A stretch of DNA of 41,958 nt from an uncultured Planctomycetaceae bacterium (GCA_903917235.1 CAIWZS010000033.1:1-41958); one strand, 5' to 3'; counted from the first letter of the stretch, positions 25,087 through 27,263 are shown. Notes: generated from the letters alone by a model not told the origin. Numbers and translations: made by a program.

Positions 25087-25320
25087 CTACTTCTTCTTCG
25101 CCGCCGGCTTGGCGGCGGCCGCCCCCTCGGCCTCTTCCTTCTTGGGCTTCTTCTTTTTCATCGACATCTTCTGCACGCGTACCTTCGGCAGGCCGAGTGG
25201 GCTGCGGCCGTCACCCCAGAGATCCTGCTCCTTGAGTCTCGCGATGCGCTCGGCGCGCGTGAGCACTCCGCGAACGTTGGAGGCACCCTTTCGCACGCGC
25301 AGGCTCTTGTCCATCGTCAT
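25087..25320 (-). CDS. Small basic protein, signature protein of the PVC superphylum (TIGR04137-like), nucleic-acid binding
   Basis: MTMDKSL...RGVLTRAERIARL...W..GRSPLGLPKVR with a Lys-rich tail; GGAGA RBS. Confidence 0.9.
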   Translation of the reverse strand: MTMDKSLRVRKGASNVRGVLTRAERIARLKEQDLWGDGRSPLGLPKVRVQKMSMKKKKPKKEEAEGAAAAKPAAKKK

Positions 25321-25398: not shown

Positions 25399-26262
25399 TC
25401 AGCACGTCACCTTCGCGATTCGGCGGAGGAAGTCCTCCATGGCGGGTGGGCGGTCGCCCGGGTCGGCCGCGAGGCAGGCCATGATCGCGTCGGCGAGCGC
25501 GGCGGGGGCGTCCTGCCAGTGTGCCCGGATGTCCTTGGGCGTGGTGTCGTGCGCGAGCGCCGCCCGGCCGCTCGATCCCCGGGGCCACGGCAGCTCGCAG
25601 GTGCCGATCTCGTATGCCGTCACGCCGAACGAGAAGACGTCGAGTCGCCTGTCGGCCTGCCGTCGCCGCACCACCTCGGGCGCCATGTAGTTCGGGCTGC
25701 CGATGCGGTTCCCCGGCTGCATGAACACCGGCTTGTCGGGCACGGCCAGTCCGAAGTCGAAAAGCACGAGCGTGCCATCGGGTCGAAGGATGAAGTTGCG
25801 GGGGCAGATGTCCCGATGGACGTAGCCGGCCGCATGGACGGTGGAGACGGCCGTCGCCGCCTGGCGCACGAGGTCGAGACGCTGCGCTGGCGAGAGCGGC
25901 GTGCGTGCCATGAGCAGGCCGTGCAGCAGCGTGCCGTCGATGAATTCCTGCAGCACGAAGGGGGCACCGTCGCTGGACACGCCCCACTCGAGGGTGCGCA
26001 CGACGTTGGGTCCGCTGATCGCGAGCCCGATCTCCCCCTCGCCGGGCTTACCCAATCCTCGATAGCGGGCCTCGATCGGCTCGCTCTTGAGCCGGTCGAT
26101 CAGCTTGAGTCCGCGCAGCTCGCCGGACACGTTGTCTCGAACCTTGTAGAAGGTCGACATCGTGCCGACGCTGCTCTCACGCAGTCGCTCGAAGCGTCTG
26201 TCGAGATCGACACGCGTCGGCCGTGCCCTCCGTCCTGCAAACAGCCGCGAGAAGAAGCCCAT
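25399..26262 (-). CDS. Stand-alone Hanks-type (eukaryotic-like) protein kinase
   Basis: LRGLKLID (beta3 Lys), GEGE (helix C), PNVV, HRDICPRN, LFDFGLA, IGSPNYMAPE, DVFSFGVTAYE, DPGDRP; no TM or sensor domain. Confidence 0.93.
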   Translation of the reverse strand: MGFFSRLFAGRRARPTRVDLDRRFERLRESSVGTMSTFYKVRDNVSGELRGLKLIDRLKSEPIEARYRGLGKPGEGEIGLAISGPNVVRTLEWGVSSDGAPFVLQEFIDGTLLHGLLMARTPLSPAQRLDLVRQAATAVSTVHAAGYVHRDICPRNFILRPDGTLVLFDFGLAVPDKPVFMQPGNRIGSPNYMAPEVVRRRQADRRLDVFSFGVTAYEIGTCELPWPRGSSGRAALAHDTTPKDIRAHWQDAPAALADAIMACLAADPGDRPPAMEDFLRRIAKVTC

Positions 26263-26279
26263 GCCGCACGTCGGGGTGG

Positions 26280-26450
26280 TCAGGTCTGCTTGAGGGCGGC
26301 GAGTTCGGCATGGGCCGCGGCGAGTTCGCGCTCGAGCCGCGGCACCTCAGCGGGGTCGTCCGGCTGGCGCTTGGCCCCGGTCAGCTGCTGCTGGAGCTTG
26401 GCGATCTTCTGGTGGAGCACCTCCATGCGCTTCTTCTGCTTCTTGTCCAC
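26280..26450 (-). CDS. Small 56-aa basic coiled-coil-like protein (absent from the ORF track)
   Basis: GGAGGTG RBS, GTG start: MDKKQKKRMEVLHQKIAKLQQQLTGAKRQPDDPAEVPRLERELAAAHAELAALKQT-stop; GC3-biased codons (AAG, CAG, CTC). Confidence 0.8.
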   Translation of the reverse strand: MDKKQKKRMEVLHQKIAKLQQQLTGAKRQPDDPAEVPRLERELAAAHAELAALKQT

Positions 26451-26573: not shown

Positions 26574-27263
26574 TCAGTCGGCCGGTTCGGTCGGCGCCGC
26601 GGCCTCCCGCGGCGAGGCGTCCGCCGGCGCGCTCGTCGCTCCGCCGACCCGGTCGTCTCCGTCCGGTGTATCGCGGCGCGGTCGGTCGGAGTCGCCCGCG
26701 GCGTCGGTGCGGGGGCCGGCACCGGCGTCGTCCAAGGCCGTGGCGGGCGCCGACGTCATCGACACCCCACCCCCCGAATCCGCGAGGTTCTCTCCGGTAT
26801 GGAGGTTGCGCATCCAGCTCGAAATCATCACCACCCCGAGCATCAGCCCGATGGTGACCGACAGCCATGTCGCCCGATTGTCCCGCATCCACTGCGTTCC
26901 CGCTCCGCGTCCGACGAGTCCGCTGGCGAGGTAGAACGCCACCATCGCGAGCAGGAACTTGATGCCGAACAGCGCGTGGTAGCCGTTCACGGCCATCCAT
27001 CGCCCCTCGCCCCATCCCTCCGCCTTCACGCGGGAGTTGAACAGCAAAAAATTGGCCAGGCCGCTGGCGAGCAGCACGGTGATGGCCGCGATGACGAACG
27101 GCAGCCACTTTCGTCGCACGGCATCGTGCACGCGATCCCGGGTCGATGCATCGAGTTCCGAGACGGCCGGCAGCAGCGCGAAGCGGGCGAAGACGAGGCC
27201 GCCCATGGCGATCACCGCCCCGAGCACGTGAGCCCATCTCAGGGCGAGGAGAGTCGGATCCAT
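26574..27263 (-). CDS. Four-TM membrane protein, CopD-like/DUF4149-like, with low-complexity acidic tail
   Basis: LRWAHVLGAVIAMGG, LLASGLANF, YHALFGIKFLLA; -10-like TAGCAT on the minus strand at 27418-27423. Confidence 0.7.
   Translation of the reverse strand: MDPTLLALRWAHVLGAVIAMGGLVFARFALLPAVSELDASTRDRVHDAVRRKWLPFVIAAITVLLASGLANFLLFNSRVKAEGWGEGRWMAVNGYHALFGIKFLLAMVAFYLASGLVGRGAGTQWMRDNRATWLSVTIGLMLGVVMISSWMRNLHTGENLADSGGGVSMTSAPATALDDAGAGPRTDAAGDSDRPRRDTPDGDDRVGGATSAPADASPREAAAPTEPAD

Follow-up and report, generated by a model that had tools for sequence, protein, structure and literature searches.

We found that a stand-alone protein kinase encoded in a 41,958-nucleotide stretch of DNA from an uncultured Planctomycetaceae bacterium (GCA_903917235.1, CAIWZS010000033.1:1-41958; hereafter the window) carries a cysteine in place of its catalytic-loop lysine. 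This lysine, which normally neutralizes the gamma-phosphate, is among the most conserved residues of Ser/Thr kinases. The window kinase belongs to a family of hundreds of sequences, universal and single-copy in 24 sampled genomes of its class, that dispenses with the lysine and keeps every other catalytic residue. The explanation that we favor with moderate confidence, from sequence comparisons, is that it is an active, PknB-descended Hanks kinase in which the charge of the lysine two residues after the catalytic aspartate (D+2) would have moved to Arg155 (D+4), with Ser/Thr as the likeliest acceptor.

A Hanks-type kinase without the catalytic-loop lysine

The kinase gene (positions 25399..26262, on the minus strand, as are all features given with coordinates below) encodes 287 aa and was recognized as an open reading frame matching Pfam Pkinase (PF00069; 103.3 bits against a cut-off of 31.7, E 1.9e-29), while PK_Tyr_Ser-Thr scored 87 bits. 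No second domain was matched in Pfam, so the kinase stands alone, and NCBIfam gave just sub-threshold likeness to PknB/Stk1-type and other bacterial kinases. Its catalytic loop, H149-R-D151-I-C153-P-R155-N156 (25795..25818), aligns with HRDLKPQN of StkP (HMMER), which puts Cys153 (25804..25806) at the position held by PKA Lys168, the catalytic-loop Lys, where the Ser/Thr-kinase consensus HRDxKxxN has Lys at HRD+2, and Arg155 (25798..25800) at D+4. Codons were checked by hand on the coding strand: gca at 25804-25806 is tgc (Cys), gcg at 25798-25800 is cgc (Arg), and gtt at 25795-25797 is aac (Asn). The motif, the absence of further domains, and the Ser/Thr-like P+1 loop are all as the initial annotation of this DNA had described them.

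The remainder of the active site was compared across a family set of 298 sequences, reaching down to about 33% identity, in whose selection K53, E75, His143, Arg186, and Arg271 were not used. The beta-3 (VAIK) Lys53 (26104..26106) is Lys in 297/298 members, the alphaC Glu75 (26038..26040) is Glu in 298/298, and D151, N156, and D169, the last belonging to the DFG motif D169-F-G171 (25750..25758; placed from the open reading frame and the family alignment), are present and essentially invariant. So is His143 (25834..25836; D151 minus 8), the Ser/Thr-kinase histidine equivalent to PKA His158. Conserved structural motifs are likewise in place, including A194-P-E196, the alphaF D208 (296/298), and R271, the alphaH-alphaI arginine that pairs with the APE Glu (296/298). 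The near invariance of K53, E75, D151, N156, D169, and H143 indicates that the kinase is probably active. The P+1 loop, G188-S189-P-N-Y-M-A-P-E196 (25675..25701), is of the Ser/Thr type, and its Ser189 corresponds to PKA Thr201 (APE-7). The glycine-rich loop, S30-S-V-G-T-M-S36 (26155..26175), had been called degenerate; it does lack the first and third Gly, but the variant xGTMS is itself conserved (G33 in 294/298, T34 in 247 with Ser in a further 34, M35 in 285, and S36 in 287).

Within the activation loop, G184-N185-R186 (25705..25713), R186 occurs in 294/298 members and N185 in 258/298. Asn185 occupies the PKA Thr197 position, so the usual activating phosphosite holds no Ser, Thr, or Tyr, and the only such residues between DFG and APE are Ser189 and Tyr192, both in the P+1 loop. 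An AlphaFold2 model built from the family alignment A1 (mean pLDDT 93, pTM 0.90, with low confidence only in the first ~10 residues) shows the activation segment as ordered (pLDDT 91-98). Taken together, the missing phospho-acceptor and the ordered segment in the model indicate that control is probably not exerted through activation-loop phosphorylation. At the N-terminus, the conserved peptide MGFFSRLFAGRR (26227..26262, from the family alignment) is modeled by AlphaFold2 as a low-confidence short helix. Its hydrophobic residues fall at i, i+1, i+4, i+7, and i+8, a spacing that suggests an amphipathic helix, which may localize or dock the kinase.

The predicted fold is that of a bilobal kinase. 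The best 50 Foldseek matches in the PDB comprise Mycobacterium tuberculosis PknB (E 2.7e-20, TM 0.78-0.85), PAK1/3/4/6, CaMKII, MST3/YSK1, DAPK, CASK, and Staphylococcus aureus Stk1, with no Tyr kinase among them, and the best PDB sequence matches are PknB-type Hanks Ser/Thr kinases (E 1.5e-24 to 1e-20). The kinase thus has a Hanks fold and not the Walker A/A'/B ATPase fold of BY-kinases, and no Walker-type or BY-kinase match to it was found in Pfam or NCBIfam.

A search of 5.8 billion proteins for homologues gave 2713 relatives at E<=1e-10, the closest 120 of which were listed. HRD[IVL]C[PA]RN is present in 120/120 of these closest listed homologues (68-100% identity, 253-308 aa). Across the family set, Cys153 is retained in 290/298 members (Ser in 5, Gly in 2, Asn in 1) and Arg155 in 270/298 (Lys in 11, with H, Q, E, and P among the others). 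Alignment of orthologues, which had been proposed as a check on the initial annotation, therefore bore out CPRN conservation, and by these counts HRDICPRN is to be read as a conserved family feature rather than a chance occurrence. Further out, cluster representatives (33-47% identity, mostly 275-320 aa) retain Cys-Pro at D+2/D+3 and have in common an N-terminal peptide of the form MGxFxxLxxLFG...RFE, while their D+4 residue varies between R, K, H, Q, E, N, and P. Some orthologues are longer (374-559 aa), and their C-terminal extensions matched no Pfam domain.

The variant is singular within its genome and widespread in the class. A motif scan of the genome to which the window belongs found 18 other Hanks kinases, all with Lys at D+2, and one further kinase-like frame with Ser; only this gene has Cys, and it is the sole kinase of ~20 there with no Lys at D+2. 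When 401 genomes of the phylum were searched with a profile, one strong match (313-386 bits) came from every genome sampled in the class (24/24), complete genomes of cultured strains included. The next-best kinase in those genomes scored at most 192 bits, which marks the gene as a single-copy core gene in the class. Lower-scoring relatives (200-235 bits) were present in several further families, and a DNA pattern for HRDxCPxN was found in 90 of the 401 genomes, with ~97 matches compared with ~13 for a reversed control. Among the class members with an orthologue is the cultured Planctomycetaceae bacterium SH248 (CP197413.1).

Basic residues at D+4 and in the P+1 loop

The D+4 arginine, put forward as a stand-in for the missing lysine, appears constrained, as relatives with a non-basic D+4 gain Lys or Arg at the neighboring P+1-loop position. 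Residue 189 is T, S, or N where D+4 is R, and K or R where D+4 is non-basic. Among family members with R at D+4, APE-7 is T/S in 167/179; among those with H/Q/E/N/P at D+4, APE-7 is K/R in 8/10, and the two exceptions among these ten have HWD or HHD replacing HRD. A second sample of homologues comprised 83 sequences with CPR and GT, 21 with CPR and GN, two with SPR and GN, and seven with CP[H/P/D], all of which (7/7) had GK. A CPHN+GK member (P0124) had no close relatives among the species genomes.

When the two motifs were left out of the tree building, non-basic D+4 residues fell at six places on the resulting tree, and all four that keep HRD and Cys have K/R at APE-7. For example, SH248 and a 96%-identical metagenome-assembled genome (MAG) have HRDLCPPN with GKVNYMAPE, and their nearest relative (51% identity) has HRDLCPRN with GTASYMAPE. 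A joint tree of 134 Planctomycetota kinase sequences included 18 of the Lys type and 116 without the D+2 Lys, which have Cys or, rarely, Ser, Gly, or Asn in its place. A base at D+4 or APE-7 is found in 112 of the 116 kinases without the Lys, and the four that have no such base are degenerate in HRD or DFG (HWD, HHD, DMG, DIA). Conversely, the Lys-type kinases have a base at neither site (18/18). Bases at both D+4 and APE-7 were found in 12/113 members.

The independent events behind this pattern are few: the best tree shows 6-8 state changes, and its well-supported branches yield 3-4 independent pairs, which leaves a phylogenetic sign test on such pairs underpowered and not significant (median p 0.5). 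We therefore regard the association of D+4 and APE-7 as suggestive. The two positions have a structural connection in PKA, where Glu170, at D+4, and Thr201 are both in contact with residue P-2 of the substrate (PMC8970585), making D+4 and APE-7 spatial neighbors beside the phospho-acceptor.

Two sequences from Brocadiia and Planctomycetota MAGs (loci L167 and L168) have Asn at D+2 (HRDLNPAN and HRDINPSN), and in them neither D+4 nor APE-7 (GSLNYIPPE and GTMNYIPPE) is basic. They represent another Lys-less variant of the catalytic loop, and would be exceptions to the rule if active.

Fetching 40 places in phylum genomes that match the HRDxCPxN pattern revealed a second group of kinases (loci L181-L200 and L217-L220). 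Every fetched member with an intact DFG has HRD[IV]CP[S/N/T/A]N together with GK[YFLIV]xYM[AS]PE, or more narrowly GK[YF]PYM[AS]PE, and thus a Lys at the PKA Thr201 position. This clade shares Cys at D+2 with the window kinase, and several of its members carry an N-terminal peptide, MGxxxxIxxLxGRFK, similar to that of the window kinase family. However, its base is the Lys at APE-7 and not a residue at D+4, and its glycine-rich loop is the canonical GxGGMG. Genomes with this clade carry about one copy each and belong to families without the CPRN type. On the tree, the second clade groups with Lys-type kinases, a placement that would mean that the change from Lys to Cys arose more than once; the deep branches are weakly supported. 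Alternatively, given the shared N-terminal peptide and the fact that the two types occupy different families, each with roughly one copy per genome, CPRN and GK types may be diverged orthologues from one ancient event.

In the mechanism that we propose, an active kinase of PknB-like descent, cytoplasmic or membrane-peripheral, would have its catalytic-loop Lys replaced by Cys153, and Arg155 at D+4 would provide the positive charge. By analogy with the AAR arginine of Tyr kinases, Arg155 would reach back to Asp151 and the phospho-acceptor, and in the relatives the same charge would come from the adjacent P+1-loop position, that of PKA Thr201. Because the charge can come from APE-7, the need would be for one basic group beside the catalytic Asp and not specifically for an Arg at D+4. 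Arg186 of the activation loop could instead be the real substitute for the Lys, and it is better conserved (294/298) than Arg155.

Expression and genomic context

Lake metagenomes commonly contain the organism, with 87-98% of the sampled words recovered in 20 runs drawn from a range of studies. The kinase gene is expressed, as metatranscriptome contigs (Logan) from three runs fall on it, contigs of a kind that can contain carried-over DNA. One contig of 866 nt (97% identical, 25574-26439) covers most of the kinase and nearly all of a small upstream open reading frame of 56 aa (26280..26450), which stops 17 nt short of the kinase start and encodes a Lys/Gln-rich coiled coil (MDKKQKKRMEVLHQKIAKLQQQL...). 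This contig fits with co-transcription of the two genes, which is probable. In 76/80 related loci, the 56-aa frame (69-100% aa identity) adjoins the kinase or lies close to it; its sole Pfam match (ABC_tran_CTD, E 3e-4) is weak and sub-threshold.

Downstream of the kinase by 78 nt is a TIGR04137 small basic protein (25087..25320; NCBIfam 1.9e-17, above the cut-off), a member of a signature family of the PVC group (Planctomycetota, Verrucomicrobiota, Chlamydiota). It follows the kinase in 79/80 related loci and in 2/3 genomes of the same order, and is not found there in the wider class or in Planctomycetaceae. Upstream of the 56-aa frame lies a multi-pass membrane protein (26574-27263), kept in 74/80 loci, with a weak, below-cut-off resemblance to DUF2269 (E 3.6e-4) and a long tail of low complexity that is acidic and rich in Pro and Ala. 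The gene order in the 80 related MAG loci is tadA, the DUF2269-like gene, the 56-aa frame, the kinase, and TIGR04137, with hemY convergent. The block from the DUF2269-like gene to TIGR04137 is kept in 74-79 of these 80 close loci, together with general synteny (tadA, hemY, and a TPR protein gene), and dissolves beyond the order.

Elsewhere, the contexts of orthologous kinases differ. The gene accD, which encodes the carboxyltransferase beta subunit with its Zn ribbon, is directly upstream of the kinase in 5/20 wider loci (L143, L144, L147, L149, and L158) and 1.2 kb away in a sixth (L153), and in several lineages accD is preceded by genes for a His_Phos_1 phosphatase, rpe, and gap. This adjacency may be an ancestral arrangement or reflect a functional link to acetyl-CoA carboxylase. 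A distant Cys-type subgroup (L152, L154-L157, and L160) adjoins genes for the gamma, delta, alpha, and beta subunits of a 2-oxoacid:ferredoxin oxidoreductase, and other family members are near fabF-like or unrelated genes. We considered inferring a substrate from gene context and rejected it: with the block dissolving beyond the order and the neighborhoods patchy elsewhere, no partner is assigned.

Alternative readings and comparison with known kinases

The cysteine itself may have a function. With 97% of the family retaining it and Ser or Ala hardly ever in its place (Ala in 0 of 298), it looks selected in its own right, which makes a thiol-specific or redox role plausible, suggests that the thiol of Cys153 itself matters, and renders a redox switch at this site a reasonable proposal. 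In a thiol-switch kinase, oxidation, S-thiolation, or metal binding of Cys153 would toggle activity, a reading compatible with the relocation of charge to Arg155. The presence of Cys at the same place in the second Planctomycetota clade speaks for it, but given the N-terminal motif common to both Cys clades, a single ancient event rather than convergence may lie behind them. There is also no partner Cys nearby, the other conserved one (C263, 244/298) being in a C-lobe helix region, and no redox genes were found in the conserved neighborhoods. We consider such a switch unlikely, although it is the strongest of the alternatives. More doubtful is a stronger version, in which Cys153 would be a working thiol at the Lys site of a redox-gated kinase and the charge would have moved to Arg155 to free the site. 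The thiol could then be a redox or thiol switch; a transient phospho-acceptor is the less likely role.

The initial annotation had proposed a Tyr-kinase-like hybrid that may be a Hanks-type Tyr or dual-specificity kinase. In such a kinase, the small Cys at D+2 and the Arg at D+4 would admit and bind the Tyr hydroxyl, as in HRDLAARN. Its premise is sound: an Arg at D+4 without a Lys at D+2 is the Tyr-kinase arrangement, in which the AAR arginine binds the acceptor hydroxyl (PMC4771162), and the CPRN motif is conserved, as this reading would have it. The E-helix histidine (PKA His158), however, is selectively lost in Tyr kinases and kept in Ser/Thr and tyrosine-kinase-like (TKL) kinases (PMC4771162), and here His143 is kept in 298/298 sequences. 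The loop reads C-P-R, so that the Arg at D+4 is all that it has in common with AAR, and D+3 is Pro. The P+1 loop, GSPNYMAPE, conforms to G-[ST]-x-x-Y-x-APE and not to the P-x-x-W-x-APE of Tyr kinases, and the closest sequences and folds are all Ser/Thr kinases (PknB, StkP, PknA, PAK, CaMKII). Furthermore, some relatives swap the D+4 Arg for a P+1-loop Lys, so the Arg is not tied to tyrosine recognition; we know of no such takeover from Tyr kinases. What remains of the hybrid is the D+4 Arg without the D+2 Lys, and Tyr or dual specificity is quite improbable. Apart from that Arg and the missing Lys, the active site is of the Ser/Thr type, as are the P+1 loop and the core, so Ser/Thr is the likeliest acceptor, with a probability that we place somewhat above even.

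Since D+4 and APE-7 line the P-2 pocket in PKA, the pattern of bases could also reflect a conserved substrate preference, for instance for an acidic P-2 residue, with catalysis proceeding without any substitute for the Lys. That both PKA positions contact the P-2 residue of the substrate (PMC8970585) agrees with this reading, but bases occupy these sites in 0/18 Lys-type and 112/116 Lys-less kinases, and a pure specificity role predicts no such link. We give it a low probability, on a par with that of Tyr or dual specificity.

Least probable of all is a scaffolding or nucleotide-sensing role for a kinase that is very weak or inactive (a pseudokinase). In its favor, the missing Lys (PKA Lys168) is counted among the catalytically important loop residues (PMC3415842), so that its loss would cripple phosphotransfer, and the glycine-rich loop lacks the first and third Gly. 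In pseudokinase families, however, it is usually the VAIK Lys, HRD Asp, or DFG Asp that is relaxed (the K/D/D triad whose loss alone defines pseudokinases in the accessible text of the 2025 bSTK atlas preprint, which covers 42 families). Here all three are present and invariant across ~300 diverged sequences, the basic-residue rule is maintained, and members without a compensating base are exactly those with a degenerate HRD or DFG.

Relocation of the Lys charge to Arg155 in an active kinase is thus the reading that we carry forward. The apparent rule places a base in one of two sites, the P+1 loop or the D+4 position that Tyr kinases use. If confirmed, this rule would amount to a natural experiment in which the arrangement that defines Tyr kinases arises from a Ser/Thr scaffold, and it would call for care with pseudokinase calls made from motif checklists. 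The invariant active-site Cys makes the family a candidate for redox-controlled signaling, and orthologues in cultured Planctomycetaceae strains make the question testable. We found no description of the CPRN variant in the searchable literature: the motif strings had no matches in a search of 8.4 million full texts, the main text of the bSTK atlas preprint mentions neither Planctomycetes nor cysteine and does not include the variant, and 'HRD' does not occur in a 2024 paper about Planctomycetota STKs, whose searchable passages contain no description of the family. If confirmed, the rule would add a catalytic-loop variant to bacterial kinase classifications whose accessible text does not mention it.

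Two links to Tyr kinases outside this group were considered and rejected. A horizontal origin from eukaryotic Tyr kinases does not agree with the best matches, which are bacterial PknB-type kinases, and the archaeal Tyr kinase Sut1 is no precedent, being explicitly not of the Hanks type.

Among known systems, the window kinase most resembles the PknB type (M. tuberculosis PknB, PknA, and PknE and Streptococcus pneumoniae StkP), with which it shares the fold (TM 0.75-0.85), all Hanks subdomains, and the G-T/S-x-x-Y-x-APE P+1 loop. Unlike these kinases, it has Cys for the D+2 Lys, Arg at D+4, the xGTMS glycine-rich loop, and the putatively amphipathic N-terminal peptide, and it lacks activation-loop Thr phosphosites, a transmembrane segment, and PASTA or other sensor domains. 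In WNK kinases, the catalytic Lys has moved from beta-3 to the glycine-rich loop strand. As in the window kinase, an essential active-site base is supplied from a different position in the fold, but in the different, eukaryotic WNK family it is the ATP-anchoring Lys that is concerned and not the catalytic-loop Lys; WNK is listed among the families without the VAIK Lys that are still able to bind ATP or other ligands in the accessible text of the bSTK atlas preprint. Eukaryotic Tyr kinases (HRDLAARN) likewise have no D+2 Lys and have an Arg at D+4, which in them binds the acceptor and the catalytic Asp (PMC4771162). The window kinase differs from them in having Cys rather than Ala at D+2, Pro at D+3, a Ser/Thr-type P+1 loop, and the retained histidine, and it has no closer sequence or fold relationship with them. 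By this analogy, the proposed relocation of charge would mechanistically be the Tyr-kinase solution, reached on a scaffold of the Ser/Thr type.
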